41,092 bases of DNA from a virus, in the IMG/VR virus record IMGVR_UViG_3300024984_000002; one strand, 5' to 3'. The position numbers were made by a program, and so were the translations under genes. The notes beneath the pieces are model-generated. The model searched no databases and was not told the origin of the DNA. It worked only from the letters and a program-made list of their open reading frames with translations. Position 1 is the stretch's first letter. Each line of letters begins with the position of its first letter. This document shows, piece after piece, positions 13,923-39,218 of the stretch.

Positions 13923-13970
13923 GTAATATTACTTTCGTTCAAACTAGAAAAGTTACTAGATAATAAAATG

Positions 13971-14006: not shown

Positions 14007-14040
14007 CTTTAGATAAGAAATATGTCCAAGTCATTACTTT

Positions 14041-16197: not shown

Positions 16198-16236
16198 AAA
16201 ATAAAAAAAGCTCATCCTACTTAAATAGGAGAGCTT
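16198..16236 (-). terminator. Intrinsic terminator after the small recombinase gene
   Basis: The minus strand reads AAGCTCTCCTA-TTTAAG-TAGGATGAGCTT (11 bp with a 1-nt bulge) followed by TTTTTTATTTT. Confidence 0.75.
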
Positions 16237-16777
16237 AGATTTTAAATCCTCTGATTGCTTTGTTTTGAATGTCTTCATCTATTCCAATGTATCTTAAAGT
16301 AAATGCTGGATCCGAATGGTTAAGTATCTTTTGTAGCAAGGCCACGTCTTTATATTTCATATACATGTGATAGCCGAATGTCTTTCTCATGGTATGTGTA
16401 CCAATATCATCTAATCCCACATACTCAGCAGCCTCACGTAATATCTTATAAGCCATGCTTCGACCAATGGGTTTGTTTATACCCTTTCGGCTTAAAAAAA
16501 GATATTCATGGTCTTCCTTGCCCTCAACATACTTCTTTAATTCACTTTGTAATTGAGTAGTCATGTCAAAACGTCTCTTCTTACCTGTTTTTATTTCAAT
16601 GATGTTAAAGTAAGAACGTTTCGTATCCTTTACCCTTAGTTGAAGAATATCTGATACTCTAAGTCCAGAATTAATTCCGGTCACAAATAACATGTAATTT
16701 CTTTCGCTTTTCTCTCTTAAAAACTTCTTTATTTCAAAGATCATATCTGGATCACGGATGGGTTGGACGAAGTTCAT
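16235..16777 (-). CDS. Core-only tyrosine recombinase (180 aa, no N-terminal arm or core-binding domain)
   Basis: Catalytic signature present: GLRVSD (Arg), HTMRKTF (His-x-x-Arg), LNHSDPAFTLRYIGI (His..Tyr). ATGA overlap with the arpU-like gene. Confidence 0.8.
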   Translation of the reverse strand: MNFVQPIRDPDMIFEIKKFLREKSERNYMLFVTGINSGLRVSDILQLRVKDTKRSYFNIIEIKTGKKRRFDMTTQLQSELKKYVEGKEDHEYLFLSRKGINKPIGRSMAYKILREAAEYVGLDDIGTHTMRKTFGYHMYMKYKDVALLQKILNHSDPAFTLRYIGIDEDIQNKAIRGFKI

Positions 16778-17229
16778 GAACCAACCACATCCTTTTCAAC
16801 GTACTTTTCTACTTTCAAAGCAAAAGCTAAGTTGTAAAAGGCTCGAGCTTTTAAACGGTAATACTTACGTTCTGACATTCCCATTTGATTATATAGCTCA
16901 TAGTCATACACTTCATCTTCAAGATACCTTTTTATAATTAGTTCTCTCTCTTTGTATCTTAATCGATTTATGGCTCTTGTTACCCACTCGATGTGTTTTT
17001 CTTTTGCTACCTCATAATCTATATTTCCAATTGCGATCTGTTCAGTCTGGGAGTGGAATTCATTTGAAAATGATGGAGGTACAAGAGAGTAAGTAGCTGT
17101 CATTTTTGGCATCTTATCTTCAGGAACCGAAAGCAAATAGATTCGATATTTCTCCAATGCTTTTTCAACAAGTGACTTGGTTTGCTCTCGGTCGATTTCT
17201 GGTAACGTAAAGAATAATTGACTCACCAT
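16774..17229 (-). CDS. ArpU-family late transcriptional regulator
   Basis: 151 aa. The C-terminus ...ERELIIKRYLEDEVYDYELYNQMGMSERKYYRLKARAFYNLAFAL is a sigma region-4-like HTH typical of the ArpU/RinA class. It lies upstream of the packaging genes. Confidence 0.75.
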   Translation of the reverse strand: MVSQLFFTLPEIDREQTKSLVEKALEKYRIYLLSVPEDKMPKMTATYSLVPPSFSNEFHSQTEQIAIGNIDYEVAKEKHIEWVTRAINRLRYKERELIIKRYLEDEVYDYELYNQMGMSERKYYRLKARAFYNLAFALKVEKYVEKDVVGS

Positions 17230-17243
17230 ATGACCCCTCCCAA

Positions 17244-17290
17244 TGGTATAATATTAATAGGCTGAGCTGGGAGAAATCCTGGCTTTTTTT
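17244..17290 (+). ncRNA. Possible tiny plus-strand transcript: extended -10 promoter plus intrinsic terminator
   Basis: TGgTATAAT at 17244-17252. A hairpin GCTGGG-AGAAAT-CCTGGC (17266-17283) is followed by T7 (17284-17290). The two G-U pairs become C-A mismatches on the other strand. Confidence 0.3.
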
Positions 17291-17324
17291 ATTATCTCAT
17301 GTACCGTTAACCTTTTAAATATCA

Positions 17325-17606
17325 CTATTTTCTACGACTCCTTACCTCATAAGATAACCACGACAAAACAATTTTTATTATGTCTCCTAACGAATAACAA
17401 GCCCCACTTATTTCTGAAGAATTATATGAATAATCCTCTATTTCTCCTTTATACAGGTGTTCGGCTTTTCCGTTATAAAAAACACGTAGTGTTTGTCCAT
17501 CTTCTCTATTGAATGTTAATCCCTTACCTGGTGATGTCGATTTTATTTGTTCTTCAATCCACCATTCTAAAGGAGGTACAAATTCAAATATCTCTAACTG
17601 TTGCAA
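17325..17606 (-). CDS. Hypothetical protein (93 aa, TTG start)
   Basis: An RBS GGAGGG lies 7 nt upstream of TTG 17606. It follows the XerC/D-like gene. Confidence 0.55.
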   Translation of the reverse strand: MQQLEIFEFVPPLEWWIEEQIKSTSPGKGLTFNREDGQTLRVFYNGKAEHLYKGEIEDYSYNSSEISGACYSLGDIIKIVLSWLSYEVRSRRK

Positions 17607-17623
17607 CCTACTACCCTCCTAAC

Positions 17624-18613
17624 CTACATAACTAGATGTTTCTTGTGTTGTTCTCGTTTTCGCTCTTCGGTAATCCTTGCATATCTTAATGTTGTATCTG
17701 GGCTACTGTGACCTAACAGTTCCTGTACAGCAACCAACTCTGCTCCGTTATTTAGTGTTAAAGTGGCGAATGTATGTCTCAGTACATGTGGACTCACTTT
17801 CTTTTCAAGACCAGCATCCTTTGCTATTTGCTTAATTTCTCGCTGTATGCCACGTTTAGAAAGACGACCGTATGGTTTTCTTTCTGACACCATGAGTGCT
17901 GGATCATCATCAGATCGACTCTTTAAATACTTCTTCAAGTGGTACATAGCCTTATAAGAAAGGTAAACTTCTCTCTCTTTATTTCCTTTACCAATAACGT
18001 TTGTAGACATGGACTGAATGTTTATATCCGTTCTGTTTAGTTGATGTATTTCAGATAGACGACAACCTGTTGCATATAACACTTCAATGAATGCTCTTTG
18101 TCTAACTGTTTTACACGATTCTCTAAGTAATTCAAGCTCTTCGATAGTTAAAGCTTTCGGTAATCTTTTTTCTGTCTTAGGTGGCTTTAGTTTTGCTGCA
18201 GGATCTCTGTTAATGATTTCTTCCCCTGCTAACCATCCAAAGAAACTTTTGATTACTGATAACTTTCTTCCGATTGTACTCATCTTTACGTTGGTCTGTT
18301 GAGCGAGGTAATTACGAATGTCAGCTGCAGTAATATCTTTGGTTAATTTCTTAACTGAGTTTGCAAATAAACCTAGCTCTAATCGATAACCATCTAATGT
18401 AAGTGGGCTCAATCCTTCAAGTTTTTTTGATGAAATAAAGAGGTGAACCTTATCGTGTAAATCTGGATGAACCTCCTCTTCATCAATCTTCTGGATGTTA
18501 TATCTAGTAACGATAGCTGATATTTTATTTTTAGCATCATCAAAGGAAAAGGCTGGTACAATATCACCTATTAAGGCCGCGATCTCTGATATGAGTTGTT
18601 CTCCAGCGTACAT
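17624..18613 (-). CDS. XerC/XerD-like tyrosine recombinase
   Basis: 329 aa. An N-terminal SAM-like core-binding domain is followed by the catalytic motifs ATGCRLSEI, HVLRHTFAT and LGHSSPDTTLRYARI. Confidence 0.85.
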   Translation of the reverse strand: MYAGEQLISEIAALIGDIVPAFSFDDAKNKISAIVTRYNIQKIDEEEVHPDLHDKVHLFISSKKLEGLSPLTLDGYRLELGLFANSVKKLTKDITAADIRNYLAQQTNVKMSTIGRKLSVIKSFFGWLAGEEIINRDPAAKLKPPKTEKRLPKALTIEELELLRESCKTVRQRAFIEVLYATGCRLSEIHQLNRTDINIQSMSTNVIGKGNKEREVYLSYKAMYHLKKYLKSRSDDDPALMVSERKPYGRLSKRGIQREIKQIAKDAGLEKKVSPHVLRHTFATLTLNNGAELVAVQELLGHSSPDTTLRYARITEERKREQHKKHLVM

Positions 18614-20692: not shown

Positions 20693-21505
20693 CTAAAAGT
20701 CTTGAACTCTCATATCCTTGCCTTCAACTTTTATTAATCTTGTTCCCTTCATCATTCGAGAGACAATTCTACCCCCGTTTTGCCCGTACTTTTCTGAGAG
20801 CTCTCCAGATCCACAGTTAGTGGTTATTACTTTAGGTTTGCTTGTCCTAGATGAGAACATCTGAAAAAGTACTTCCCCGACCCAACTTTCGCCTTTTTCA
20901 TCCGTCTTTACACGTTCAGCTCCCAAGTCATCGAATATTACTAAGTCAGCTGCTTCAATGGCATCAAATATCTTATCTGATGATTCTTTTTTATTACCGA
21001 ATGTGTTTTTGATTTTGTTCATTAAAGTTGGAGTATCAATGTAGATCACCGTGAAATTCTTGCTTCTAACACCATCTGAAATGGATTTAGCTAAGTGTGA
21101 TTTACCTACTCCATATGGGCCTTTTAAAATCAGAGAATTCCACCCTTCGATTTTTGAAAAGTTATCTGCATACCATTTTGCTTTTTGAAGTGCTTCTGAT
21201 TGAGTTGGATGATTTGGTATGTAGGAATCAAAGGATGCCTTTTCTAAATCAAATGGAACTAAACTGTATTGCTCATAAATGTATTCATGTTTCTTGCTAT
21301 CAGCTTTCTGTACAAACTCTTCATACTGTTTCTTCGTTTCAAGATTAATGCAGTTAAGGCACTTGCTTACTGGAATCACACGATCACTAACTGATCTTTC
21401 CATCATAAGAACTTCTTCACCGCATTTTTCACATATGCGTGAACCAACTACTCTGATTTTAGAAAAGCTTGTCATAATCTCCTGGAGGCTTTTTATCTTG
21501 ATCAC
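20693..21505 (-). CDS. DnaC/IstB-like AAA+ helicase loader with N-terminal zinc ribbon
   Basis: Walker A GPYGVGKSHLA, Walker B LVIFDDLGAE and N-terminal CEKCG...CLNC. It lies downstream of the replisome organiser. The start is uncertain (GTG 21505 or ATG 21475). Confidence 0.8.
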   Translation of the reverse strand: MIKIKSLQEIMTSFSKIRVVGSRICEKCGEEVLMMERSVSDRVIPVSKCLNCINLETKKQYEEFVQKADSKKHEYIYEQYSLVPFDLEKASFDSYIPNHPTQSEALQKAKWYADNFSKIEGWNSLILKGPYGVGKSHLAKSISDGVRSKNFTVIYIDTPTLMNKIKNTFGNKKESSDKIFDAIEAADLVIFDDLGAERVKTDEKGESWVGEVLFQMFSSRTSKPKVITTNCGSGELSEKYGQNGGRIVSRMMKGTRLIKVEGKDMRVQDF

Positions 21506-22280
21506 CTACTTTCTGATTCAAGTAGCCTTCAAATTTGTTTCCGAATAGTGTTTCAGGACGTAAATAACGGCTCATTTCCTTGTGCTTAATCCATTCGGTT
21601 ACTTTTTTATCAATAACTGTCTTGAAATCATCTAAACGAAAGCCTTCTTTCCAACGTTTACGTATTAACTCTTGTGTTTTAGATGTGGTATATCGATAAC
21701 ATGAGTCGGACTTCTCATTTAGATACTCGATAATTTCTCGGAATGGAGGCGAAGCGTGAGTTTTTGTTTCTTCTTCTTTTTCTTCTTCTTTTTCTTCTTC
21801 TTTTTCTTCTTCTTTTTCTTCTTCTTCCCCACCTAGCGTGGACGTATCGTTATACGTACCGTGGACGGTTCGTGAAAATAACGTTGCAATGTCCTCGTTT
21901 GGTATATGCGAGATGATATCAACCAATAAATTCAAGTCTTTTACTTCTTGCAATTCCTTTTTAATGCAATCAATAACCGGCTTACCTGCATTAGCTAAGT
22001 TGTGCTTTCCCCAGTTGTTGATTGCAATTTCTCTGGTCTTTTCGTTGTATTTAACCAATCGATGAACATTAATAAATCGATCGAGTAAGCTGCTAATGGA
22101 CTCTGTTGAATAACCTAAGTCAAAGGCCATTTGCTTCTTGGTTATTTGATACACTCCAATTTGAGTTGTGTTAGGATTTGTAAGTAAGTACAAGTAAAAA
22201 TACTTATCTTCTGGAGTGAGCTCTTCAAGTACTCTGGAATCCTGCCAGAAGGTGGTTTGAACCTTTCTAAACTTTGCCAT
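21459..22280 (-). CDS. Replisome organiser / DnaD-like replication protein with conserved phage C-terminal domain
   Basis: The C-terminus EIIEYLNEKSD..YRYTTSKTQELIRKRWKEGFRLDDFKTVIDKKV..W......YLRPETLFGNKFEGYLNQ matches the Phg_2220_C signature. The N-terminal domain is separated from it by an (EEEK)n linker. Confidence 0.8.
   Translation of the reverse strand: MAKFRKVQTTFWQDSRVLEELTPEDKYFYLYLLTNPNTTQIGVYQITKKQMAFDLGYSTESISSLLDRFINVHRLVKYNEKTREIAINNWGKHNLANAGKPVIDCIKKELQEVKDLNLLVDIISHIPNEDIATLFSRTVHGTYNDTSTLGGEEEEKEEEKEEEKEEEKEEETKTHASPPFREIIEYLNEKSDSCYRYTTSKTQELIRKRWKEGFRLDDFKTVIDKKVTEWIKHKEMSRYLRPETLFGNKFEGYLNQKVGDQDKKPPGDYDKLF
21770..21827. repeat. Tandem 12-bp repeat (cttcttcttttt x4 plus a partial unit) inside the replisome organiser gene
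   Basis: Counted by hand. It encodes EEEK repeats in the interdomain linker. Confidence 0.9.
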
Positions 22281-26977: not shown

Positions 26978-28108
26978 ATGACAGCAATGAAGGGTTATGT
27001 CCGCAAGAGGGGAAGTAAGTGGAGTTATACTGTTGATATCGGTCGTGATCCAATAACGGGAAAAAGAAAACAAAAAACAAAAGGAAGTTTTAACACTCAA
27101 AAAGAGGCAGAACAAGCACTAAATGAAGTGATTTATGAGTTCAATAAAGGGATATATATTGAACCGAATAAAATAATGGTTAAAGATTTTGCTAACGAGT
27201 GGATTGAAGGGTATAAGTATAACCTTCGAGATACCACAGCGGAACAGTATATTTCTAAAATCAATAAATGGATCATTCCTTTAATTGGGCATTACAAGAT
27301 ACAAGATTTAAAACCGGTACACGCTCAGAATTTTTCAGGACAATTACTCGCTAACATGAAGCCTAGTACCGCTCATAAAGTATACGCAATCACAAAACTA
27401 ATAGTTAAACACGCTGTACAACTTGAATTGATTACCAGAAACCCTTTCGAAAATGTATCTATTAAAGATCAAAAAAAGAAAGTGGAAACATGGACATTTG
27501 AAGAGATGAACCATTTCTTAGAAACAGTAAAGATGCACAATGAATTTTTCTATCGTGTGTTCGCTACCGCAGTTTTTACTGGAATGAGAAAAGGAGAAGT
27601 GTTAGGACTACGGAGGATAGATGTGGATCTAAGCAACAAGAAATTATCTCTCAAACAAAGTTTAACTGAAACAAAAGAAAAAGGTGTCCAAGTGAGCGAC
27701 TTGAAAACACCTTCGTCCTATCGCCAGGTAGCAATAGATGATTTTCTCATCTCTATAATAAAGGAACAGATCCATAAAAACAATGAAATGAAGTTAAAAT
27801 TAGGTTCTGAATACCAAGATTATGGGCTGATATTTTGCAATGTGGACGGAGCTCCCTATCGACCAACAAGTATCAATAGACCTTTTCGAAAGTACGTGGA
27901 GCTTTCTGGAGTGCCTAAATTACGGTTTCACGACCTTAGGCATACTCATGCTACCTTATTACTCGAAATGAATGTAAACCCTAAAATTGTAGCTGATAGA
28001 TTGGGGCACTCTTCTGTAAAAATCACATTAGATACCTATTCTCATGCTTCGTTAGGAATGCAGCAAAATGTAGCAGATCAGTTTTCTAAACGTGCATTAA
28101 AAGCTTGA
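26978..28108 (+). CDS. int: Tyrosine integrase (likely start ATG 26987)
   Basis: The N-terminus MKGYVRKRGSKWSY is an arm-binding type. Catalytic motifs are GMRKGE, RFHDLRHTHAT and LGHSSVKITLDTYSH. The RBS AAAGGAG lies 9 nt before ATG 26987. Confidence 0.9.
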   Translation: MTAMKGYVRKRGSKWSYTVDIGRDPITGKRKQKTKGSFNTQKEAEQALNEVIYEFNKGIYIEPNKIMVKDFANEWIEGYKYNLRDTTAEQYISKINKWIIPLIGHYKIQDLKPVHAQNFSGQLLANMKPSTAHKVYAITKLIVKHAVQLELITRNPFENVSIKDQKKKVETWTFEEMNHFLETVKMHNEFFYRVFATAVFTGMRKGEVLGLRRIDVDLSNKKLSLKQSLTETKEKGVQVSDLKTPSSYRQVAIDDFLISIIKEQIHKNNEMKLKLGSEYQDYGLIFCNVDGAPYRPTSINRPFRKYVELSGVPKLRFHDLRHTHATLLLEMNVNPKIVADRLGHSSVKITLDTYSHASLGMQQNVADQFSKRALKA

Positions 28109-28355
28109 TGTGGTCAGAATGTGGTCAAGCCTAAAGGAAGAACGGCTAAAACATTGATATAACATAACTTTTTATACTAAAACCATAATCATATCTGAAC
28201 TGTATTTTATTTTTACGCTAGTTGCATCCAATTAACAAAATAACTCAAAAACCCGTTAAATCAACAGTTTTATTCACCCTTTTTCACTTGCTAAATAATA
28301 GTAGTTAACACTAATTAATAGTAGTGTGTGGTCAATCATGTGGTCAATGTGGTCA
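28108..28355. other. Candidate attP with integrase arm-type repeats
   Basis: Five direct copies of RTGTGGTCA (28108, 28119, 28326, 28338, 28347) bracket an AT-rich non-coding stretch of about 200 bp immediately 3' of int. Confidence 0.5.
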
Positions 28356-28375
28356 TATCGATTGACCTTTTTTTT
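28342..28375 (+). terminator. Hairpin plus T8 (plus strand) at the convergent int / parR ends
   Basis: GGTCAAT-12 nt-ATTGACC followed by TTTTTTTT (28368-28375). Confidence 0.5.
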
Positions 28376-28589
28376 ATATCAGATCACTCATAAAATCCTC
28401 TGTCTCTAATGGTTTACTTACTTCAACTACATTCATAGTGGATTTAGTCATCCCTTCCAAATCTCTCTGAATTAATGCTTTAATATAAGCTGAAATATTC
28501 TCATATTGCTCACAATGGTCAAACAACTTCTTTTGGTGAGGATCCAATACATTAAATGATACAGATTTATTTTTGATTAACTTTGCCAT
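28374..28589 (-). CDS. parR: ParR-like ribbon-helix-helix adaptor protein
   Basis: 71 aa directly downstream of, and overlapping, the ParM-like gene. The N-terminus KSVSFNVLDPHQKKLFDHCEQYENISAYIKALIQRDL fits an RHH (beta strand plus two helices). Confidence 0.55.
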   Translation of the reverse strand: MAKLIKNKSVSFNVLDPHQKKLFDHCEQYENISAYIKALIQRDLEGMTKSTMNVVEVSKPLETEDFMSDLI

Positions 28590-29409
28590 AAATAGAACAT
28601 CCTATCTTATAGAAGCCGATCGCATTTGCGAATGTAGGATCACCACACACAGATTCATATATCGGCTTCAATACTTCCATGTTCGGATAGTACTGTTGAA
28701 TATAAGGAATTAACTTTTCTGCAGCACCACCGACTAAATAGCCTTTATCACTGTTATTCCACTTCTTTGTTGTGTGGGTGACTATTCCCCTTGCTAGTGC
28801 TGATAAGTCGCTAGAAACAACTGTATTTAAACCAAAAGGTAAGGTGAATGAGTCTCTATCTACATACCTCTTGTTTAATAAGGAAGCGCAGTTCACAGTA
28901 GCACTACCCACATCGATGATTCTTACTAATCCATCTTTCGGTTTACTCCAGAAGGAAGCTCCACCCTCAGCTGCTACTTCCACATGAGAGATAAGAATAA
29001 CTTTTGTCTTATCATTCACAGTGATTTCATGGGAACCCTTCAACATATCTTTAATTCGTTTCTTTTCTTCCTCGGTATGCTTACTGATCGGCTGACCGAC
29101 AATAATTTGAAATTGATTTGTAGTCTGACTATATCTGTGGAGGGCAAGTAAGATTCTTAGTTTTGCATCCTCATGCGCTTTACTATCTCCCATTAGAGAA
29201 CCACCAAACTCTGATTCAGCATCAGCTAGGCTCCCAGCAAATCCTTTTCTTCCTTCAAACTCGAAAATCATATCATCCTTACCTGGAGTGTTCTTAATTC
29301 TCCTTTCTCGATATTCGCCTAATGTAGAGCTGAATATATCTAGTCCTTGTGGACCACAAACCTTTACCCGGTAATTCCCTGCATCAATACCAACTATCAT
29401 TTTATACAC
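28567..29409 (-). CDS. parM: ParM/StbA-family actin-like segregation ATPase (likely start ATG 29400)
   Basis: Phosphate-1 motif IVGIDAGNYRVK, phosphate-2 motif IIDVGSATVN and an overall length of about 280 aa are typical of ParM-like proteins. Confidence 0.75.
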   Translation of the reverse strand: MYKMIVGIDAGNYRVKVCGPQGLDIFSSTLGEYRERRIKNTPGKDDMIFEFEGRKGFAGSLADAESEFGGSLMGDSKAHEDAKLRILLALHRYSQTTNQFQIIVGQPISKHTEEEKKRIKDMLKGSHEITVNDKTKVILISHVEVAAEGGASFWSKPKDGLVRIIDVGSATVNCASLLNKRYVDRDSFTLPFGLNTVVSSDLSALARGIVTHTTKKWNNSDKGYLVGGAAEKLIPYIQQYYPNMEVLKPIYESVCGDPTFANAIGFYKIGCSIYGKVNQK

Positions 29410-29414
29410 CTCTC

Positions 29415-29470
29415 TGGTTACTAACTAGTTAAGAACTAAATTTTCGTGGTTACTAACTAGTAAGGAACTA
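29415..29470. repeat. Two 24-bp direct repeats upstream of parM (candidate parC centromere/operator)
   Basis: TGGTTACTAACTAGTTAAGAACTA (29415-29438) and TGGTTACTAACTAGTAAGGAACTA (29447-29470): 22/24 identical, 32-bp period, each containing an ACTAGT palindrome. Confidence 0.55.
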
Positions 29471-30091
29471 TAAATCTTCTTTCGTTAAAATCATGTGTTT
29501 CAATCCTACTTTTTCGCACGATGCTTCAAGTATCTTTTTTCTGTGGTCAGTTGTTGTATAAAAAACGAGTACTGGTTTAGTTTTAAATTGCTGTTCAATG
29601 GCTGGAGATAATAACTGATATTGGCTTATCTTCTTTTTGTTTTCAGTCATGGATTGTGTACGATCTACTTCTAAAAAGTGGAACACATCATTAAGGGAGA
29701 ATGTAGCATCTGGAACAATGGTTGCTTCTTTGTAGCTTAATCCTGATTGATATTTGAAAATAATAGGTAATTCATTCTCCCAATCCTTTGGACATTCAAA
29801 GTAGATATACATATCGTTTCTTAAAAGATGGTGGTCAATCTGATTATTCCATTTGATTTCTTTATCGGAGCCTATCACTTCCCTTCCTTGCTGATTAAGG
29901 TAGTAAATGTTTTCTGATACACGTTTGATATGCATATACTCATTCATCTCCTTGAGTACTCTTATTGCATTTCTATCCGTTCCAAGGTCATGTAACTTCT
30001 GTAAATGATGTCTAGTGGCGAATCCCATCTTTTCCAAACTTAACAAGATCTTCTCTTGTCTCTTTCTTTTCTTCTCGATGTTCGACAACAT
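29468..30091 (-). CDS. Replication-relaxation family protein (putative relaxase/initiator)
   Basis: 207 aa. The N-terminal winged-helix-like ILLSLEKMGFATRHHLQKLHDLGTDRNAIRVLKEMNEY resembles the Replic_Relax family. It is paired with an FtsK-like translocase, as in Gram-positive mobilisable elements. Confidence 0.55.
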   Translation of the reverse strand: MLSNIEKKRKRQEKILLSLEKMGFATRHHLQKLHDLGTDRNAIRVLKEMNEYMHIKRVSENIYYLNQQGREVIGSDKEIKWNNQIDHHLLRNDMYIYFECPKDWENELPIIFKYQSGLSYKEATIVPDATFSLNDVFHFLEVDRTQSMTENKKKISQYQLLSPAIEQQFKTKPVLVFYTTTDHRKKILEASCEKVGLKHMILTKEDL

Positions 30092-31274
30092 GATCTGGCT
30101 TAACCTCCAATACTTGTGGTTGTTGGTATTTCTCTAATCGCTCCCACATTTCATCATGTGAGATAAAAGGTACTTGTAATTCCTTTAATTCATGTGTTTT
30201 AAATAAGGCCCTTCCTTTTATATCAGAAGGTAATTCCTCAGCTCCACGATCATCTATTGCAACCTCAGAAGCATACCCAGAAGGTAAACGGAAGGTGATT
30301 TTTGCATCACTATTCTGTTTTATGGAACGTGGCAAGGTATCGCTAGTTGGATACTGGGTTGCAAAGATTAAACGATATGAGAGCGCACCTGTGACTCGAG
30401 CAATCTCACCTAAGAAATACTGACACATACCCAATAGACTTTTCATTTCTCTACTCATCCATTTTTCTGGTGCTAACTGTGCGGCTTCATCCACAATTAT
30501 GAAGCGTCTCTTCTTGATATTTGTATCAACTACATTAGATATGTTTTTCTGTCTAAACTCTTTATAAAGCTCTTGGTATTCCTCATGTAACTTTTCAAGT
30601 AGATCAGCAGCTTCCATTGGATTTGAAGCGACCTTTTTAACTTGTTCTAAATGTTCGTATCGACCAAACTCTAAACCACCTTTTAAATCAATAATGTAGA
30701 ATTCAACATCATTTGGGTGGTTTTCAATTAAATAAGTCATCATCATACGAAGATAAACGGTTTTTCCAAAACGAGTAGTACCAGCGACTGTCATATGTGG
30801 TGTGTGGTCAAAGTTATGCCATATTAACCCTTCAACGGATTTCCCTATAGGTACTAACCACTTATTAGATTTATGTGGAAGATCAGCGTAAGGGAATAAC
30901 TCAGGAAGCTCCTCATTGTATACTTTTATTTGAAGTAATCCCTTTTTAAATTCAACTTCTACAGGCTTACCAAGACCATCACTAAACACATTGATTTCCT
31001 TCTCAACCTTTTTCATTTTAGTAGCTGGTAATCCTAAAGGTACGGAAAAGTGATAATTCACTCCAATTTCTTTATCACCGTCAAAAAGTTTCTTCTTGAA
31101 TTTAAAAGTAGGAGTTTTGATTGGCTCTTCTTCACTTTTACCTGGTATTCCATATCGAGTGTTCTTGAATATATTTTCAATTTTCTTTTTGTCTGACATA
31201 CCACTTTTTGGTATTAAAGCTACACCGGCCACAGCTAACGGAAATGCTAACCATTCAATCACGAAGCTCACCAC
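30012..31274 (-). CDS. FtsK/SpoIIIE (TraB/TcpA-like) membrane-anchored DNA translocase
   Basis: N-terminal TM segment, Walker A VAGTTRFGKT, Walker B FIIVDEAAQL, 420 aa. Confidence 0.85.
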   Translation of the reverse strand: MVSFVIEWLAFPLAVAGVALIPKSGMSDKKKIENIFKNTRYGIPGKSEEEPIKTPTFKFKKKLFDGDKEIGVNYHFSVPLGLPATKMKKVEKEINVFSDGLGKPVEVEFKKGLLQIKVYNEELPELFPYADLPHKSNKWLVPIGKSVEGLIWHNFDHTPHMTVAGTTRFGKTVYLRMMMTYLIENHPNDVEFYIIDLKGGLEFGRYEHLEQVKKVASNPMEAADLLEKLHEEYQELYKEFRQKNISNVVDTNIKKRRFIIVDEAAQLAPEKWMSREMKSLLGMCQYFLGEIARVTGALSYRLIFATQYPTSDTLPRSIKQNSDAKITFRLPSGYASEVAIDDRGAEELPSDIKGRALFKTHELKELQVPFISHDEMWERLEKYQQPQVLEVKPDHVVEHREEKKETREDLVKFGKDGIRH

Positions 31275-31464
31275 TTTCCCATAGGTTAAACGCTTCGTAC
31301 TTAATGTAATTCTTTAGTTCACAGTAATAATCACTTCCATAAAACTCTTGGATTTCATCTTCTGTTAAATCCTCAAGAGCTCTTTCAGCTAATACTTTCA
31401 TCTCGATAAACAATCTGTTTTTACGGCTGATTTTCATATAAAAATCGCATCCTTTCTTAACCAT
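31255..31464 (-). CDS. Hypothetical protein (69 aa)
   Basis: ORF overlapping the start of the translocase gene. Confidence 0.5.
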   Translation of the reverse strand: MVKKGCDFYMKISRKNRLFIEMKVLAERALEDLTEDEIQEFYGSDYYCELKNYIKYEAFNLWESGELRD

Positions 31465-31592
31465 TCAGAATGAAATGAGGGATGGGTGAGACCTTAGCGA
31501 AAAGCTAAGGGAGTTTAATTTAAAAAGAACCTTTCAAAAAACCTATAAAACTAGTAATCACAACGAACGGAATATACTGAAGAAAATTCTAC

Positions 31593-31859
31593 CTAAAACC
31601 CAGTCAATACATGCCTGAAAAGAGGATTCTTAAATATAGTCCAAAGTAGAGAGAACAGAATACCTGAAAGCATAAGCACCCGTACAAAGGCTTCGTTAAT
31701 CGGAATACCCATCTTTTCTAGTGCTATCATTCCTAATAGGACAGCTCCCGTACCAACAAAGAAGGTCAAGCCCCCATCCACCATAGAGAAGATACCAGGA
31801 CTAGGGCTAATAGATCCAGCAACAAAAGCTTTAAAAGGAATCACTTCATAAGTCATCAT
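31593..31859 (-). CDS. Hypothetical membrane protein (88 aa, 2-3 TM)
   Basis: Hydrophobic segments GGLTFFVGTGAVLLGMIAL and VLMLSGILFSLLWTIF. Confidence 0.55.
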   Translation of the reverse strand: MMTYEVIPFKAFVAGSISPSPGIFSMVDGGLTFFVGTGAVLLGMIALEKMGIPINEAFVRVLMLSGILFSLLWTIFKNPLFRHVLTGF

Positions 31860-32134
31860 TTATTCTCCTTTTCCCACATCTTTTTATATTGATCTTTAGC
31901 TTTGAAATAAACTTTGTCATAGCTTTCGATTCCAACGTCAACGCAACTGTATCGCTCCATATAGAGCATTAATTCATGAAGATCCTCTAGATCATCTGCT
32001 TCCCACAATAATTCATTGAGATAGTTGGAGCTAAACAACATAGGATAGGTGTTCAGCTCATCAAACTTCCTCTGGTGAAACTCATCTTGCTTAGCTTCCT
32101 TATAACCTTCAAACATTGACCATAGGAGGCTCAT
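31856..32134 (-). CDS. Hypothetical protein (92 aa)
   Basis: 4-nt overlaps with both neighbours. Confidence 0.55.
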   Translation of the reverse strand: MSLLWSMFEGYKEAKQDEFHQRKFDELNTYPMLFSSNYLNELLWEADDLEDLHELMLYMERYSCVDVGIESYDKVYFKAKDQYKKMWEKENK

Positions 32135-32343
32135 AGAGGTTCACCAACTTGCAAGAAAGCATTTAATGGAAGCTCCCATTCACACCATTCAGATGGATCA
32201 TCATCCTTCTCTCCAATAAGTAGCCAATAAACGTTATAAACGTTTCCATCGGCATCTAACGCTCTTACCACACAATACTCTTCATCCACAATACAAGGCT
32301 GATTGATAGCATGAAGCTCTTTTCCTCTGTAGTTAATAGTCAT
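32131..32343 (-). CDS. Hypothetical protein (70 aa)
   Basis: First gene of the minus-strand operon that leads to the translocase. Confidence 0.55.
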   Translation of the reverse strand: MTINYRGKELHAINQPCIVDEEYCVVRALDADGNVYNVYWLLIGEKDDDPSEWCEWELPLNAFLQVGEPL

Positions 32344-32381
32344 TAGCTATCCTTCCTTTCGTTGTTTGATAGTCTATTCTT

Positions 32382-32702
32382 ATGACCATTCCGAAAGGAA
32401 GTTGCCTGTCTATCACAAATTTATTTGGATTTTACAAAAAATATTGTGAAAGGAATAATATTACTTGTACCGAATACATATATTGGGTGATAAATATGGT
32501 AGTAGTTCTGATAGGAAATTGGATTAAACGATCTAATTATTCGAGGGTAGAAATCTGCAATGAGTTTGGTATATCTCAGAATACCTTATCAAATTGGTGT
32601 ACTGGGAAGACTTATCCTTCTATTCCACAAGCTTTAAAACTTGCATCAATGTTGAACGTAAAGGTAGATGATCTTTACGTAATAAAGGAGGAAGAAGAAT
32701 GA
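32382..32702 (+). CDS. XRE-type HTH regulator (likely start ATG 32496, 68 aa)
   Basis: The HTH is YSRVEICNEFGISQNTLSNWCTGKTYP. An RBS GGGTGA lies 5 nt before ATG 32496. It is divergent from the 32343 operon. Confidence 0.65.
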   Translation: MTIPKGSCLSITNLFGFYKKYCERNNITCTEYIYWVINMVVVLIGNWIKRSNYSRVEICNEFGISQNTLSNWCTGKTYPSIPQALKLASMLNVKVDDLYVIKEEEE

Positions 32703-33298
32703 AGAAAATGGTTATTTTAGTATTGGCCGCTTTCCTTTTAGGAGGATGTGTTCAGTACAAAGATGGTAAGCCAGTAGAAACAGCAAGTAGTGAAGAGAAG
32801 CCAAAAGAAGAAGTGAAGAAAGAAGAACCTAAAAAAGAAGAAAAGCCAGTTAATGAGGAAAAGGTTGAAGAGATAAAGTTACCAACTAATAATGAAGAAT
32901 TAACAGCTTACTTAGAAAATGTTCTTCCGAAGGAAGCTAAAGGTGAAGTTGCTGTAACTAATTTTGAAGATGGAACTATAAGTGCACAAGTCGTCTTTCA
33001 AATAGAAGATGGATTTGTTTTAGAAGCACCTGCTAAAGATGCTGCACGAGACTTTATTTTTGCTGCTTATGCTTCAGGAATGGATATTGGTTATGCCATG
33101 GCTGCAATTAATGCCCCGGATGGTTCACTTGGTTTATCAGTAGGTGTCGGTAAAGAAGCAGCTGCTACACAAGATCCTTCCACATGGACTGATTCTTCTG
33201 TAGGTGCAACTGTATTTCTTGATTGGGTAAAGGAAAATATAAATGAAACTGAGGTTTTTACTCAACGAGTATTTTTAAGTGGCCAATGGGCTAAATAA
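32699..33298 (+). CDS. Lipoprotein (199 aa) with Lys/Glu-rich tether
   Basis: The signal plus lipobox is MKKMVILVLAAFLLGGC. It is followed by SSEEKPKEEVKKEEPKKEEKPVNEEK and then a globular domain of about 130 aa. Confidence 0.75.
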   Translation: MKKMVILVLAAFLLGGCVQYKDGKPVETASSEEKPKEEVKKEEPKKEEKPVNEEKVEEIKLPTNNEELTAYLENVLPKEAKGEVAVTNFEDGTISAQVVFQIEDGFVLEAPAKDAARDFIFAAYASGMDIGYAMAAINAPDGSLGLSVGVGKEAAATQDPSTWTDSSVGATVFLDWVKENINETEVFTQRVFLSGQWAK

Positions 33299-33309
33299 GG
33301 AGAAAAATA

Positions 33310-33549
33310 ATGAAAGAAGTATTCCTAAGAATCAATTACACCTCCCCAGCCGGCAGATCCGAACGAAAAGGTAACTTCCCATTACGTGGTCAACGTCCAG
33401 AAGAAGTTGCTTTGGATTGGTGGGAGAAAGATGTCAGTAGAGGTGTAGAAAAGAAGCTAGATAAGATACTGGCTGATGGTGTGGATATAACGGAGAAAGT
33501 GTTAGAAGTGAGAAAAGAACGATGGTATAAACTTGGATTACCTTTTTAA
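33310..33549 (+). CDS. Hypothetical protein (79 aa)
   Basis: Third gene of the plus-strand operon, followed by a terminator. Confidence 0.55.
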   Translation: MKEVFLRINYTSPAGRSERKGNFPLRGQRPEEVALDWWEKDVSRGVEKKLDKILADGVDITEKVLEVRKERWYKLGLPF

Positions 33550-33579
33550 AGCCCCTCCAATAAGGAGAGGCTCTTTTTT
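33550..33579 (+). terminator. Intrinsic terminator of the plus-strand moron operon
   Basis: AGCCCCTCC-AATAA-GGAGAGGCT followed by CTTTTTT. Confidence 0.65.
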
Positions 33580-33766
33580 ATACAGTTTCCAATGTTAATT
33601 GACCATTAACCACACGATAATTCGGCACGTTGCTGATCACAGTTTCGTAATCATCCATTAAATAAAAAAAGAAATCGTACTGCTTCATCGGAATAACTCT
33701 GGCCCCAATCAAACTATCTTCGATTTTGCCCTCTTCATCTACATCACAAAAAAATAATACGCCCAT
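33578..33766 (-). CDS. Hypothetical protein (62 aa) downstream of the Tal-like gene
   Basis: Tightly coupled to the stop of the Tal-like gene. Confidence 0.5.
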   Translation of the reverse strand: MGVLFFCDVDEEGKIEDSLIGARVIPMKQYDFFFYLMDDYETVISNVPNYRVVNGQLTLETV

Positions 33767-33767
33767 A

Positions 33768-35633
33768 TTATCCCTCCTGGACTATATATCTAACACTTCC
33801 ATACGTGTAATAATTTAAGCTTGAATACATGCGCCAATAGCAAACTAAGATATTTCCTGTTGGTGTGCCTAAGTCCACTAGAATATCTTTTCTGTACCCT
33901 TGGTCAGGATGTTTTCTCGTTTCCGTAACAGTGACACTTGCAATAGATGTTGATTCGTCGTCACTTAGAACATCAAAGGAAATTCTCCCAATGTTACCGA
34001 AGTCTACTCCGCCATCCACAGACATACTGCATATAATTCGTAAGTATCGACTATCGTGTTTAAACACAAATCGTTGGACGTTTTCATATCGGTTTTGTGC
34101 TGAAGTTCTGTAAAATTGCCCAGATTCTTCTATGCCGGTTGTCTTAAATGTTGGTGTGGATCCTTGGATTGCAAAACTGTTGGAAAGGATGCCGTTATTC
34201 ACAACCTTGTAACCGTCTGGACGTTCAATGACCATAGCACCTTTAGCAATATAGATCTCACCAGAATCCAACCTTACAAACTTATTTGCGTCGGCTGCAT
34301 CAATAGAAATTAAGTAATTACCATCCCAATAAAAAAGATCATCGTTTCCGATAATCTGAATGTTGTTGGTTTTTATTTGTCCGGCTGTTAATAGTGATGT
34401 GTTTACTCCAAATGGAGTGATTGCATCTGGGAAAGTTACCCCGTTATCAGTAGTCACGCCAATTCCCGAGCTTCGAAAAACAACGAACCTTTCCGGATTC
34501 TCTGGATCGCGAGCGAGTATTCCCATATTCTCAGGATATTCAAGTTGTGTTAGAGAATTATTCAATGCTTCAGTTGCTCGTTTAACAGCTTCATCATATA
34601 CGTTGTATCGAAGTTTGCCTACGTTCTCGTCATAAATTTTATCGAGTAATGATTTCTGATAATCCATGACACTCTTCACGAAAGATTTAGGAACAGTTGA
34701 AAGTGTAACCTTTGGTGATTTCTTACTTTCTGGATAATCTTCACTCTCAATAATCCGCAAATCCACATCGATATTTAAAGGCTCATAAATGGTCGGTACG
34801 GTGTCTCCGATATTCGGGTTAACAGATGTATATCCTTGCTCTTGTAAGCTCACAAACTCCAATTCTATGCTTATTTCAGGTGTATCTTGAAGTTTAGCTT
34901 TCAGATTTTCTACAAGTGTATCATAATGGGTGATTGATTCATTACTGTATGGTGGAGCATGACGTACTCCATAGATGGCAGCCATAGGTGATGTATACTC
35001 AGCTGATACAATAGGATTTTCATCCTCATCTAATTTTCCGGTACCTTTGATGTATGTGGATAGATTGCTTGTATTTACATTTCGTTTAAAGGTCTTAATG
35101 TTGTAACCGTAACGGAATTGAAAATCTGCAGTAGAACCTATTTTCTTTTTTATTCTCACGTCATTATCGATGAATTCAAACTCTGCCTGGTACCGATCAA
35201 TCACCTTTTGAAATAAAGATAAACAATTTTCATTACCAAAGTTCTCAAATTCAACTGTGGAAAAAGAATCGATTACTGAGAATGTCCAATCTAAACCACT
35301 AAAAATAAACGATAGTACCGTATTTATGGACTTGAATCCTGTAGTAAGAGTTGTATATCTGTATTCGTCCACAATATCAAAGAAAGTATGATACGCTGTG
35401 ATTGATTTAATTGGTTTTCCTTTTGTTTGCTCGACTAGTCCTTTAATTCGATATTTAATGGAGTCATATTCTACAATGCTTTCCTCTGCAACCAAATCAA
35501 AGGAATGACTATTCTTATCTGTTTTAAGTAATAAAAAGGATATGGACTGTTCTCCATTCACTCTTTTCTTACGAGTTAAGTTTGTATAGTCAGTGATAAT
35601 TTCTGATGTTCCAGCTAAGTTCGTGACGATCAA
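33768..35633 (-). CDS. Tail-associated (Tal) / prophage tail endopeptidase-family minor structural protein (TTG start)
   Basis: 621 aa. The N-terminal 350 aa (MIVTNLAGTSEIITDYTNL...VNGEQSISFLLLK...; ...GDTVPTIYEPLNIDVDLRIIESEDYP) follow the pattern of the phage minor structural protein N-terminal region. An RBS GAGGTG lies 7 nt upstream. Confidence 0.7.
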   Translation of the reverse strand: MIVTNLAGTSEIITDYTNLTRKKRVNGEQSISFLLLKTDKNSHSFDLVAEESIVEYDSIKYRIKGLVEQTKGKPIKSITAYHTFFDIVDEYRYTTLTTGFKSINTVLSFIFSGLDWTFSVIDSFSTVEFENFGNENCLSLFQKVIDRYQAEFEFIDNDVRIKKKIGSTADFQFRYGYNIKTFKRNVNTSNLSTYIKGTGKLDEDENPIVSAEYTSPMAAIYGVRHAPPYSNESITHYDTLVENLKAKLQDTPEISIELEFVSLQEQGYTSVNPNIGDTVPTIYEPLNIDVDLRIIESEDYPESKKSPKVTLSTVPKSFVKSVMDYQKSLLDKIYDENVGKLRYNVYDEAVKRATEALNNSLTQLEYPENMGILARDPENPERFVVFRSSGIGVTTDNGVTFPDAITPFGVNTSLLTAGQIKTNNIQIIGNDDLFYWDGNYLISIDAADANKFVRLDSGEIYIAKGAMVIERPDGYKVVNNGILSNSFAIQGSTPTFKTTGIEESGQFYRTSAQNRYENVQRFVFKHDSRYLRIICSMSVDGGVDFGNIGRISFDVLSDDESTSIASVTVTETRKHPDQGYRKDILVDLGTPTGNILVCYWRMYSSLNYYTYGSVRYIVQEG

Positions 35634-35693
35634 GAGGTATCACCTCATTTCAATATTTATGTTTTACAACAATAGGATACTGCGACATAAGAA

Positions 35694-35721
35694 AGCCCCT
35701 CTCGGATGAATGAGAAGGGCT
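35694..35721 (-). terminator. Hairpin terminator between the repeat-fibre gene and the Tal-like gene
   Basis: On minus-strand RNA, AGCCCUUCUC-8 nt-GAGAGGGGCU pairs perfectly (one G-U) and is followed by UUCUUAU. On the plus strand the same stem has a C-A mismatch. Confidence 0.5.
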
Positions 35722-35729
35722 GTTTTTCT

Positions 35730-37157: not shown

Positions 37158-37168
37158 TTGAATACCTC

Positions 37169-37462
37169 CTATTCTCCTGTGTAACTTTCAATAATTATAC
37201 AAGGTTGAGGGTTTTCTTCATCGTGAGTACATTCGTGCCAACTGATTTCTCCACCAAGTAAATTCACTTGCCCTTTTAAATCATTAAACAAGGTGTCTTT
37301 GTCCACAATAGAAGAGACGTGAACTTCAAAGTTCACAATGTCTCTTCCGTTCTCATCCTTCCCTTTTCGTGGATCTAACTTATATAACAAGACTTTATTT
37401 AATAAGTTGACCAAGGATATATCATCAGCAGTTCTTAGACGACCTATGATAGAGTATTTCAT
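37169..37462 (-). CDS. Hypothetical protein (97 aa)
   Basis: ORF between two fibre-associated genes. Confidence 0.5.
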   Translation of the reverse strand: MKYSIIGRLRTADDISLVNLLNKVLLYKLDPRKGKDENGRDIVNFEVHVSSIVDKDTLFNDLKGQVNLLGGEISWHECTHDEENPQPCIIIESYTGE

Positions 37463-37472
37463 CCTCCATCAC

Positions 37473-37859
37473 CTACTCAATACTTACAGACAATTTAGTA
37501 GCAGCCATCTTAAACTGATCTCCACTCGGTACGGTTTTAGCAGTAGATAAAGCACCATACCACAGCATATTTCCGCCTGTTAGAGCATCCATTAAGCCAA
37601 TGTGAGTGATTGTTCCCCAGTTGGCTGTAGCTGTGTCAAATAGAACATCAACACTGTTAGAGGTCGCTCCTGTCGTTGCCGCAGTGAATGAAATAGCTTT
37701 ACGAGCATAAGCGCCACCCGTTACTTCGGTTCCTGTTCCAGCTTCTGTTGGATCAGCTGTAAATAAAGCAAGGTACACTGTAGGCATAGTGAAAGCAGAA
37801 ACTCCAAGAATGTGGTTTAATACTTTATTCTCTGCGTAATTAGTAAGATTGTTAGCCAT
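37473..37859 (-). CDS. Conserved phage protein (128 aa), possibly virion or fibre-associated
   Basis: The pattern ...VYLALFTADPTE.GTGTEVTGGAYARK.ISF...WGTITHIGLMDALTGGN resembles a widespread small phage protein usually found near fibre genes (from memory, unverified). An RBS AAGGAGG is present. Confidence 0.4.
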   Translation of the reverse strand: MANNLTNYAENKVLNHILGVSAFTMPTVYLALFTADPTEAGTGTEVTGGAYARKAISFTAATTGATSNSVDVLFDTATANWGTITHIGLMDALTGGNMLWYGALSTAKTVPSGDQFKMAATKLSVSIE

Positions 37860-37905
37860 GTATTATTCCTCCTTTTTATATAAAAAGCCCTCAAAAAAGA
37901 TGGCA

Positions 37906-39137: not shown

Positions 39138-39160
39138 CTCACACCGCCCTTTTTACATAA

Positions 39161-39187
39161 TTAAAAAGAGCCCTCGAAAGGACTCTT
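39161..39187 (-). terminator. Intrinsic terminator between the fibre gene and the lysis cassette
   Basis: The minus strand has AAGAGUCC-UUUCGA-GGGCUCUU followed by UUUUUAAUU. Confidence 0.65.
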
Positions 39188-39218
39188 CGTTTTGTCGCAT
39201 TTGTTTCCGATTGTTCAT

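Follow-up and report, generated by a model that had tools for sequence, protein, structure and literature searches.

A ParM-type partition cassette and an FtsK/Replic_Relax gene pair as separable modules beside the attachment site of an integrating Bacillaceae phage

Why would a phage that can insert its genome into the host chromosome also carry genes for partitioning and pumping DNA? The question is raised by a 41,092-nucleotide stretch of viral DNA (IMG/VR record IMGVR_UViG_3300024984_000002; "the window" below means this stretch at its full length), which is the genome of a temperate, integrating siphophage of Bacillaceae. Four minus-strand open reading frames (ORFs) at positions 28374–31274, beside the phage attachment site attP, encode a ParM-like ATPase, a 71-aa partner protein, a replication-relaxation (Replic_Relax) protein and an FtsK-like translocase. 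An earlier reading of this DNA made from its letters alone (the sequence-only reading) had placed all four correctly and regarded them as one plasmid- or integrative conjugative element (ICE)-type module for maintenance and transfer, an interpretation that our analysis partly supports. We lean, with moderate confidence, towards an account in which the block forms an accessory operon under its own regulation, located at the attP-proximal end of the genome and composed of two separable modules that act on the phage genome as a free circle.

The attP-proximal part of the block is, by its sequence features, a complete type-II-partition-like cassette in which direct repeats, an actin-like ATPase with intact motifs and a small overlapping adapter follow one another (Table 1). 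The ATPase matches ALP_N (PF17989; 6.4e-21) and phrog_691, labeled 'partition protein' (2.5e-50), and its solved relatives are CorM, AlfA (3e-6), Alp12 and clostridial ParMs. The two motifs singled out in the sequence-only reading, IVGIDAGNY (residues 5–13) and IIDVGSATVN (residues 164–173), are present, and alignment of six homologs with 45–94% identity reveals invariant ATPase residues in phosphate 1 (G7/D9/G11/N12/K16), at E148–G149, in phosphate 2 (D166/G168/S169/T171) and in the adenosine motif (G227–G228). The family suggested for checking this protein, PF06406 (ParM/StbA), gave no match, and the related ALP_N was the only family reported at E ≤ 0.1; the NCBIfam ParM equivalog scored 40 bits, far under its cut-off of 417. 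The direct repeats noticed upstream of the pair proved to be two 24-nt copies within the 58-bp interval ahead of parM, immediately before its ribosome-binding site. Each copy contains the palindrome TTACTA-GT-TAGTAA, and the 15-nt repeat core occurs at these two places and nowhere else in the window, compared with 0.11 occurrences expected. More distant ParM homologs also have paired palindromes in this position, with sequences that differ from those of the window.

The partner had been described as a 71-aa ribbon-helix-helix (RHH)-like protein. A small ORF overlapping the parM stop codon is indeed there, whereas the fold is not established: the AlphaFold2 (AF2) model, with an extended N-terminus and helices at residues 17–28 and 32–50, reaches a predicted local distance difference test (pLDDT) score of 62, and searches were uninformative. 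PHROG matches fall in families of unknown function only, and profile search of the PDB gave the RHH protein HP0222 as a weak match (E = 0.62). Members of the adapter family keep a K-S-V-S-F strand motif, an N-F-S-x-Y-I-K-x-L-I helix cap and a conserved acidic/hydrophobic C-terminal tail (E-D-F-M-S-D-L-I), and the order of elements in the model together with the SVSF and NFSxYIKxLI motifs probably fits an RHH fold. An adapter gene directly follows ParM also in Robertmurraya korlensis, Metabacillus, Lietuvens, PVJ1, D6E and comparison loci L023, L024, L026 and L028.

After megablast of positions 28000–32500 against phage and plasmid records had given no match, we used protein-level searches, and comparison with a prophage of R. 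korlensis PF24B2 delimits the cassette. Across the 20.8-kb R. korlensis locus, the sole DNA homology to the window is 29461..28383 (1,081 bp; 86% identity by blastn, ~90% by MAFFT), bounded by repeat 1 on one side and the stop codon of the adapter gene on the other. Both repeats are kept, and the spacer and the upstream gene have diverged. The two ParM proteins are 93% identical and the adapters 76%, compared with 25% for FtsK and a Replic_Relax similarity undetectable by BLASTP. From these bounds and the divergence of FtsK/Replic_Relax it follows that parC–parM–parR is a discrete exchangeable unit of ~1.09 kb (29462..28374) and that the repeats are part of it, which is what one expects of a centromere or operator. 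Because the elements with the closest relatives of the Replic_Relax protein (64% identity) are without ParM, the ParMRC of the window is best read as an insertion between Replic_Relax and attP. What had been taken for one module therefore resolves into two, a ParM cassette inserted into an FtsK/Replic_Relax–att–int end.

In R. korlensis the cassette forms the end of an integrated prophage on an 823-kb contig (NZ_JAMBNS010000001.1), and a radC fragment and the genes mreB, mreC and mreD come next; ParM, adapter and integrase also occur together in phages D6E and PVJ1. The idea that a partition system is a hallmark of an extrachromosomal prophage is not supported here: a cassette with a 93%-identical ParM resides in an integrated prophage, so partition genes are no proof of a plasmid lifestyle. 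The literature had warned of such a case in the integrated prophage CGP3, whose actin-like AlpC acts on excised DNA (PMC8026635, PMC4446434). Between the R. korlensis prophage end and mreB (positions 11025–13218 of that locus) we observed a 417-aa ORF that weakly matches a group II intron maturase, and a 64-aa C-terminal RadC fragment, which suggests integration into or beside radC plus a further insertion.

The surroundings of the cassette vary among its carriers. In loci L024, L026 and L028 the order is ParM–adapter–…–FtsK–Replic_Relax, placing the cassette on the opposite side of the pair; in D6E and loci L025 and L027 it adjoins a VirD4-like ATPase of ~850 aa; and no ATPase of this kind accompanies ParM and the adapter in PVJ1 and Lietuvens. 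In phage D6E (NC_019544, 6821–7470), an unannotated 68-aa adapter homolog overlaps the ParM stop in a stretch with ambiguous bases; beyond it come another RHH-like ORF, a membrane protein of 146 aa and, beside the integrase, the VirD4-like ATPase. On a 786-kb contig of Metabacillus sp. Hm71 (5000–17200), ParM (56%) and an 80-aa adapter lie in a conjugative-element-like region with an 839-aa ORF of no known family, a large multi-span membrane protein and a 758-aa FtsK-type ATPase, which indicates that the cassette family is common to phages and conjugation-type elements.

The second module combines a membrane-anchored ATPase with a nuclease-like protein, and both annotations of the sequence-only reading survive profile searches. 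The translocase, described there as FtsK/TraB-type, matches PF01580 and has Walker A GTTRFGKT at residues 165–172, Walker B IIVDEAAQ at 259–266 and a single N-terminal hydrophobic segment at 1–23. Among solved structures it is closest to 6o1w-z, labeled 'DNA translocase coupling protein' (8e-23 versus 9e-11 for chromosomal FtsK), which we take to be TcpA of pCW3; our literature search returned no paper naming 6O1W/6O1X. One ATPase domain, an N-terminal anchor and a gene directly upstream of that for a DNA-processing enzyme fit the TcpA layout. Chromosomal FtsK/SpoIIIE translocases differ in having a multi-span N-terminal domain, a long linker and a C-terminal gamma domain that reads KOPS/SRS, whereas this protein is 420 aa long with one hydrophobic segment and no gamma domain (no Pfam match to FtsK_gamma; NCBIfam FtsK equivalog at 37 bits versus 1566).

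The Replic_Relax protein matches PF13814 (2.8e-12) at 47.5 bits against a gathering score of 25.3 and phrog_2190 at 3e-63, and its homologs carry PF13814. Its AF2 model (pLDDT 93.6) consists of an N-terminal winged helix and a C-terminal alpha/beta core, for which Foldseek returned the PD-(D/E)XK nucleases VC1899, Cdn1, AddAB, Card1/Can2, Cas4, RecE and OkrAI as well as winged-helix proteins, and eight residues (H87, N92, D93, D128, E141, D143, Q146 and K154) are invariant in 32 homologs. Published work places the PF13814 family both in the PD-(D/E)XK superfamily (PMC3424549) and, as the MobC relaxase superfamily, among mobilization enzymes (PMC5357655). MobC relaxases are coupled to VirD4 proteins in class 8 of the integrative mobilizable elements (IMEs) and in pGIAK1 (PMC5357655, PMC3756968), and in streptococcal IMEs MobC-type relaxases occur with VirD4 and never with TcpA-type proteins (PMC5357655); the partner here, by contrast, is an FtsK_SpoIIIE-domain protein and not of VirD4 type. 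Among the profile-scanned ORFs of the window we saw no type IV secretion system (T4SS) genes, and we identified no origin of transfer (oriT) in the window; the only oriT/nic candidate for Replic_Relax is a hairpin in the operon leader (31492–31510).

How far does this pair reach beyond the window? Its layout of a divergent helix-turn-helix (HTH) gene, small ORFs including a membrane protein, and an FtsK gene overlapping Replic_Relax recurs, with gene order unchanged, in Wbeta; in Page-like podophages, where annotated terminators bound it and the stretch examined showed no integrase; in a Niallia prophage whose integration point adjoins a truncated comGA; in free phage contigs of 42.7 kb, where an integrase comes immediately after it; on the phage-plasmid pBFR_3; and on non-phage Priestia cargo plasmids. 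The pair is present in 105 phage records (97 Bacillus, 6 Geobacillus and 2 Staphylococcus), and among the matches listed an FtsK gene adjoins Replic_Relax in 40/40 phage rows. The pair also occurs on 124 plasmids of Bacillus, Priestia, Brevibacillus, Geobacillus and Cytobacillus, 55 of them typed non-mobilizable. Among its carriers, the Andromeda-like phages are lytic, and Gamma, which keeps the pair, is a lytic derivative of Wbeta. In Fah, the homolog of the pair belongs to the 'delayed' gene class of lytic growth (PMC4113786), and Replic_Relax and FtsK are described as 'often encoded next to' partition systems (PMC9658697); in the literature searched we found no demonstrated function for the pair. 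Sequence comparison marks FtsK/Replic_Relax with the divergent HTH gene as a cassette conserved at the right end of Wbeta-like phages and of many others from Bacillaceae, including some in which no integrase was seen, and shared with phage-plasmids and ordinary plasmids. The proposal that the pair is a minimal mobilization module fits poorly with a conserved Wbeta/Gamma-like cassette that is kept in lineages in which no integrase was seen, is a lytic-cycle gene in Fah and lies in a window where no T4SS was seen.

The genome that carries both modules is in its unintegrated (attP) configuration, with standard replication and standard integration modules besides the block. Window bases 1–127 are repeated exactly at 40966–41092, and this 127-bp terminal overlap identifies a circular contig with a true size of ~40,965 bp; after removal of the overlap, the ORF of a 789-aa tail protein runs across the circle junction. 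Copies of the circle at least 99.99% identical to one another occur in three independent assemblies, each in attP form. Within the collection, proteins identical to ParM and to the adapter occur in 30–31 blocks, with contigs of 20–50 kb in 26–27 blocks and none longer; the adapter–attP–int junction is present in 20–21/20–21 contigs read, and host flanks in none. A scan of metagenome and viral contigs for attR junctions with the adapter 3′ end, by which integrated copies were sought, gave 0 matches. Circular assemblies are not decisive for a lysogenic episome, since virion or replicating DNA would yield the same circular contigs. Separately, the adapter and Replic_Relax proteins of the window are also listed on an 80,601-bp contig, perhaps a tandem dimer or else an integrated copy flanked by host DNA.

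The capacity to integrate is predicted from the integrase and the sites around attP. Two TGTGGTCA sites lie at the int side (28109 and 28120) and three at the adapter side (28327, 28339 and 28348), and the whole window holds 8 copies compared with 0.88 expected. This 2+3 layout looks typical of arm sites for an integrase with an Arm-DNA-binding domain, and the claim of a complete integrase/attP set is borne out in the form of an intact-looking tyrosine integrase with five arm sites. No tRNA was found in the window. Further TGTGGTCA copies, oriented like the arm sites, lie at 29542–29549 inside Replic_Relax and at 30803–30810 inside FtsK and may be due to chance. Two Xer-family recombinase genes elsewhere in the genome, with an ArpU-like activator gene between them, are by analogy candidate multimer resolvases of the circular form; the plasmid prophage B83 carries a like accessory Xer set (PMC6669507). 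Profile searches thus place a partition system and a multimer-resolution-type recombinase together in a complete phage genome. The genome also has a DnaD/DnaC-type module, so FtsK/Replic_Relax is not its sole replication-type function.

The far end of the operon bears on its regulation. The HTH gene that diverges from it probably encodes its local regulator, and the FtsK cassettes of Wbeta, the Niallia prophage, L018/19, pBFR_3, pBEH3 and R. korlensis likewise have a reversed HTH gene ahead of them. Of the leader proteins, to which scans with Pfam, PHROG, PADLOC and NCBIfam-type profiles assigned no family, the 88-aa one has two hydrophobic segments, and Wbeta (wp21) and R. korlensis, too, encode a small membrane protein ahead of FtsK; a relative of the 92-aa ORF, judged by eye from the translation, precedes FtsK in L024. 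The leader hairpin may serve as terminator or operator, or may mark a nick site. The block had been placed between attP and the virion genes: attP does adjoin it, whereas four small minus-strand ORFs and a divergent plus-strand trio intervene before the virion and lysis genes. This trio (32382–33549), between the structural genes and the operon, comprises the XRE-type HTH, a 199-aa protein with a signal/lipobox-like N-terminus and a weak match to Cor-type exclusion proteins, and a 79-aa ORF. Ahead of their FtsK cassettes, Wbeta, the Niallia prophage, L018/19, L024, pBFR_3 and pBEH3 have a comparable gene pair, in which a reversed HTH gene is joined by one for a membrane protein or a protein of no assigned function.

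Table 1. Features of the operon, the attachment region and related modules in the window (positions of the whole stretch; +, plus strand; -, minus strand;., no strand)
Feature	Position	Strand	Description and evidence
Accessory Xer-family recombinases	16235..18613	-	329 aa at 18613..17624 and short 180 aa at 16777..16235; NCBIfam XerA/XerC/XerD-like 4e-69, 8e-21; PHROGs
Replication module	20693..22280	-	DnaD-like organizer + DnaC-like loader; phrog_6251 4e-79, phrog_50 7e-61
Tyrosine integrase with arm-DNA-binding domain	26978..28108	+	Phage_integrase 2.3e-24, Arm-DNA-bind_4 3.3e-18
attP region	28109..28373	.	Five TGTGGTCA arm-type sites, all in one orientation
Adapter	28374..28589	-	71 aa; ParR-like by position, probable RHH; 23-nt overlap with ParM stop
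ParM/Alp-type actin-like ATPase	28567..29409	-	280 aa, or 277 aa from ATG at 29400
parC-like site	29415..29470	-	Two 24-nt direct repeats, 29415-29438 and 29447-29470, 32 nt apart
Replic_Relax (MobC-superfamily) protein	29468..30091	-	207 aa (192 aa by gene callers); start overlaps FtsK stop
Membrane-anchored FtsK/SpoIIIE-family ATPase, TcpA (coupling-protein-like) type	30012..31274	-	420 aa; PF01580 2.3e-19, phrog_1358 2.8e-104
Four small leader ORFs	31255..32343	-	70 aa 32343..32131; 92 aa 32134..31856; 88 aa 31859..31593; 60/69 aa 31437 or 31464..31255
Perfect 7-bp-stem hairpin CCTTAGC-N5-GCTAAGG	31492..31510	.	In 128-bp gap upstream of 60-aa ORF and FtsK
Predicted divergent promoter region, HTH gene/first operon gene	32344..32495	.	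Plus-strand promoter-like site 32431-32459, 10/12 matches
Divergent XRE/CI-type HTH gene	32496..32702	+	68 aa by gene callers (independent assemblies); longest ORF from 32382; HTH_3 3.8e-9

Read round the circle on the minus strand, the genome starts with a cro-like gene and early genes with a Rha-type anti-repressor, followed by the DnaD-like organizer and DnaC-like loader, the two Xer-family recombinases around the ArpU-like activator, and then HNH, TerS, TerL, portal, protease, capsid and tail genes. The tape-measure protein, Dit, the 789-aa tail protein, a holin, a GH25 endolysin and four more structural-type genes including Prophage_tail (Tal) come next, and the order ends with the plus-strand trio (HTH, lipoprotein, 79 aa), the operon studied here and attP, beyond which lie the plus-strand integrase and a CI-like repressor. 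The late-gene order (33578–41018 plus 633–3460) is unusual in that the lysis cassette is embedded among tail and baseplate genes: the endolysin is followed by a Gp80-like protein, 97-aa and 475-aa proteins, a 621-aa Prophage_tail (Tal-like) protein and a 62-aa ORF, an order identical across independent assemblies. The HNH endonuclease gene (12242–12625, minus strand) lies directly upstream of TerS/TerL, which is the usual layout of HNH-assisted cos packaging.

How would the operon work? In the partition module, the adapter would bind the two palindromic repeats before parM, thereby also autoregulating the cassette, and ATP-dependent actin-like filaments would capture the adapter–DNA complexes through the adapter C-terminal tail and push or position phage circles. 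Unintegrated or excised copies would then not be lost at division, and probably not at sporulation either; alternatively, the filaments may place replicating DNA as AlpAC does in prophage CGP3. In the other module, a membrane-tethered hexameric DNA translocase would be linked by translational coupling to a winged-helix/PD-(D/E)XK nuclease with sequence specificity, which recruits the element's own DNA or processes it, in the service of intracellular DNA handling and not of conjugative export. We infer the substrate and direction of the pump and the expression timing of each module, as we do DNA binding by the adapter and filament formation.

Several observations weigh against this account of two modules serving the free circle. 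The ParM subfamily is rare on bona fide plasmids, with 7 full-length matches, all at ≤43% identity, and the ParMs of confirmed plasmid prophages are absent among the 40 best phage matches of the protein. The parC-like site has just two repeats, fewer than the classical parC sites of R1 and pSK41, and the adapter gave no significant fold match by PDB profile search, by Pfam (10 homologs) or by Foldseek of its AF2 model. The operon is co-directional with the late genes, in contrast to the maintenance genes of plasmid prophage B83, which are on the lysogeny strand. The nearest characterized relatives of the FtsK/Replic_Relax pair are conjugation proteins (a coupling protein and MobC relaxases), and the gene order of coupling protein, relaxase and integrase mirrors that of IMEs, which favors the sequence-only reading.

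That reading allowed the element to switch between integrated, episomal and possibly conjugatively mobilized states; in such a model, Replic_Relax would be a MobC-type relaxase nicking an oriT and FtsK the coupling protein to the T4SS of a co-resident ICE or plasmid. The membership of PF13814 in the MobC superfamily, the intact nuclease fold and catalytic residues, the closeness of the FtsK-like protein, with its N-terminal transmembrane segment, to a solved conjugative coupling protein and the gene order shared with streptococcal IMEs (a further gene lying before the integrase) all speak for it, as do the ~850-aa VirD4-like ATPases beside the ParM homologs of D6E, L025 and L027 and the conjugation-like region around the Metabacillus cassette. 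We nevertheless regard conjugative mobilization as unlikely and rate this model low, because the pair is kept where no integrase was seen (Page and the lytic Andromeda-like phages), is of the 'delayed' class in the lytic growth of Fah, stands in a window without T4SS genes among its scanned ORFs and would join a MobC-like to a TcpA-like protein, a combination never found in IMEs, where MobC pairs with VirD4; its retention in Gamma and the 55 non-mobilizable plasmids among 124 carriers point the same way. Somewhat less improbable is a role in replication initiation, in which Replic_Relax nicks the circle for rolling-circle (late, concatemer-forming) replication, like NicK on excised ICEBs1, and FtsK is an accessory motor. 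The phrog_2190 label 'replication initiation protein', the description of the family for plasmid replication and relaxation, the middle-class timing of the Fah gene and the presence of the pair on Priestia plasmids without a typed replicon suit this explanation. The PHROG label is a propagated annotation, however, a DnaD/DnaC-type module is already present, the membrane anchor fits badly with a replicative helicase, and to our knowledge PD-(D/E)XK enzymes form no covalent 5′ link as HUH initiators do. A superinfection-exclusion or defense device, in which the membrane FtsK/HerA-like ATPase and the nuclease attack incoming foreign DNA, would suit a location between lysis genes and att that is typical of lysogeny-expressed accessory genes, and ATPase–nuclease pairing is known from HerA-type defense systems, but the pair also occurs in phages in which no integrase was seen, and we consider this very improbable. 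PADLOC found only generic FtsK-domain similarity (SspH, mad8), with no match to the nuclease, to ParM or to the adapter, and a defense identity was rejected.

Two further explanations deserve more weight, although each is unlikely overall. The lysogenic state might chiefly be that of a plasmid prophage, segregated by ParMRC, resolved from multimers by Xer and initiated by Replic_Relax as a plasmid-type initiator, with integration as an occasional back-up. Free circles in every sample read, none with host flanks, accord with such a lifestyle, and ParM, adapter, repeats and two Xer-like genes match B83, while the pair itself resides on phage-plasmid pBFR_3 and ordinary plasmids; yet int/attP looks intact and has five arm sites, a near-identical cassette is integrated in R. 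korlensis, the closest FtsK/Replic_Relax relatives are integrating phages, the circular contigs would equally arise from virion or replicating DNA, and the same proteins are listed on the 80.6-kb contig. Of similarly modest probability is a spore-entry device akin to the forespore pumps mentioned in the sequence-only reading: ParMRC would move circles to the poles and the FtsK pump, loaded by Replic_Relax, would carry DNA across the sporulation septum into endospores, a function that would be useful alike to temperate phages, virulent phages and plasmids. The pair is nearly confined to endospore-forming hosts (the phage counts and the plasmid genera given above) and occurs on every kind of non-chromosomal element, including phages in which no integrase was seen; membrane association is conserved, either in cis or through the small upstream membrane protein; and AlfA-type actins aid plasmid inheritance in B. 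subtilis sporulation. Against it, the host restriction may reflect gene flow inside one family, we identified no sporulation-specific promoter or regulator, the literature searched held no experiment on any homolog, and integrated prophages that have no need of such a device also keep the pair. A more speculative idea, which we rate as rather improbable, is that these phages bear a conjugation-derived export unit (TcpA-like pump and MobC-like nuclease) together with a polar ParMRC, and so move their genome virion-free to the forespore or, through a helper T4SS, to a neighbor cell. The recurrent, independently arranged linkage of ParM with coupling-protein-like ATPases, be they FtsK/Replic_Relax on either side of the cassette or the VirD4-like proteins of D6E, L025 and L027, would then reflect a functional partnership.

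Set beside known systems, both modules of the favored account are of kinds already described. ParM-like ATPases with RHH adapters and iterons, and in part Xer recombinases, are published for Bacillus plasmid prophages (PMC6669507, PMC8026635), and annotations of the FtsK/Replic_Relax pair go back to the Wbeta/Gamma genomes. The plasmid prophages vB_BtS_B83, vB_BceS-IEBH and Bp8p-C share the host family and siphovirus context, an actin-like ATPase followed by a small adapter, upstream repeats and Xer genes elsewhere (PMC6669507, PMC8026635), but they are without a lambda-type integrase/attP and have maintenance genes on the lysogeny strand, whereas here int and arm sites flank a cassette that runs in the late-gene direction. 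AlpA–AlpC–alpS of CGP3 in Corynebacterium glutamicum is likewise an actin-like protein and DNA-binding adapter of an integrating prophage that acts on the excised circle (PMC4446434, PMC5539076), although it comes from another phylum and no close sequence relationship to it was seen. ParMRC of R1 and AlfA–AlfB–parN of pLS32 have the same order of centromere, ATPase and adapter and the same actin-fold motifs, and AlfA is similarly short (~275–280 aa); the window differs in its two repeats and in an adapter without detectable similarity to solved ParR or AlfB-type proteins. The closest counterparts of the pair are wp19–wp23 of Wbeta/Gamma/Cherry/Fah and the homologs in Page-like and Andromeda-like phages, PM1 and Geobacillus, which have the same gene order, the same FtsK/Replic_Relax overlap and, in the Wbeta-type cassette, the same place after lysis genes and before recombinase/lysogeny genes, with identities of 44–48% for FtsK and 36–46% for Replic_Relax. 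These phages lack the ParM/adapter genes, the Wbeta integrase ORF is much longer (~480 aa), and no integrase was seen near the pair in Page. Firmicutes ICE/IME modules of TcpA and relaxase (Tn916/ICEBs1/ICESt3) also have an FtsK-related anchored ATPase directly upstream of a DNA-processing enzyme and beside an integrase, yet there TcpA goes with rolling-circle-type relaxases and MobC with VirD4, whereas here a TcpA-like protein stands with a MobC-like one, and the carrier is a complete tailed phage. What is new is the definition of the bounds and mobility of the cassette, its copy in an integrated prophage, the way it recurs, in varying order, beside coupling-protein-like ATPases and the pairing of TcpA-like with MobC-like proteins against the rules of IMEs.

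For classifiers of phage-plasmids, the locus is a caution that a partition system beside an integrase, or in an integrated prophage, is by itself no sign of a plasmid lifestyle. The FtsK/Replic_Relax pair is among the most widespread uncharacterized cassettes of Bacillaceae phages and plasmids, including the typing phages of Bacillus anthracis, and its occurrence with and without ParMRC, in two gene orders, offers a natural comparison, for which the exact bounds of the partition cassette define a 1.09-kb unit for cloning. The importance of the locus would rise sharply only upon proof that a phage genome moves independently of virions. If the operon works as proposed, an integrating phage guards its free circle from loss after infection, after excision or through sporulation.

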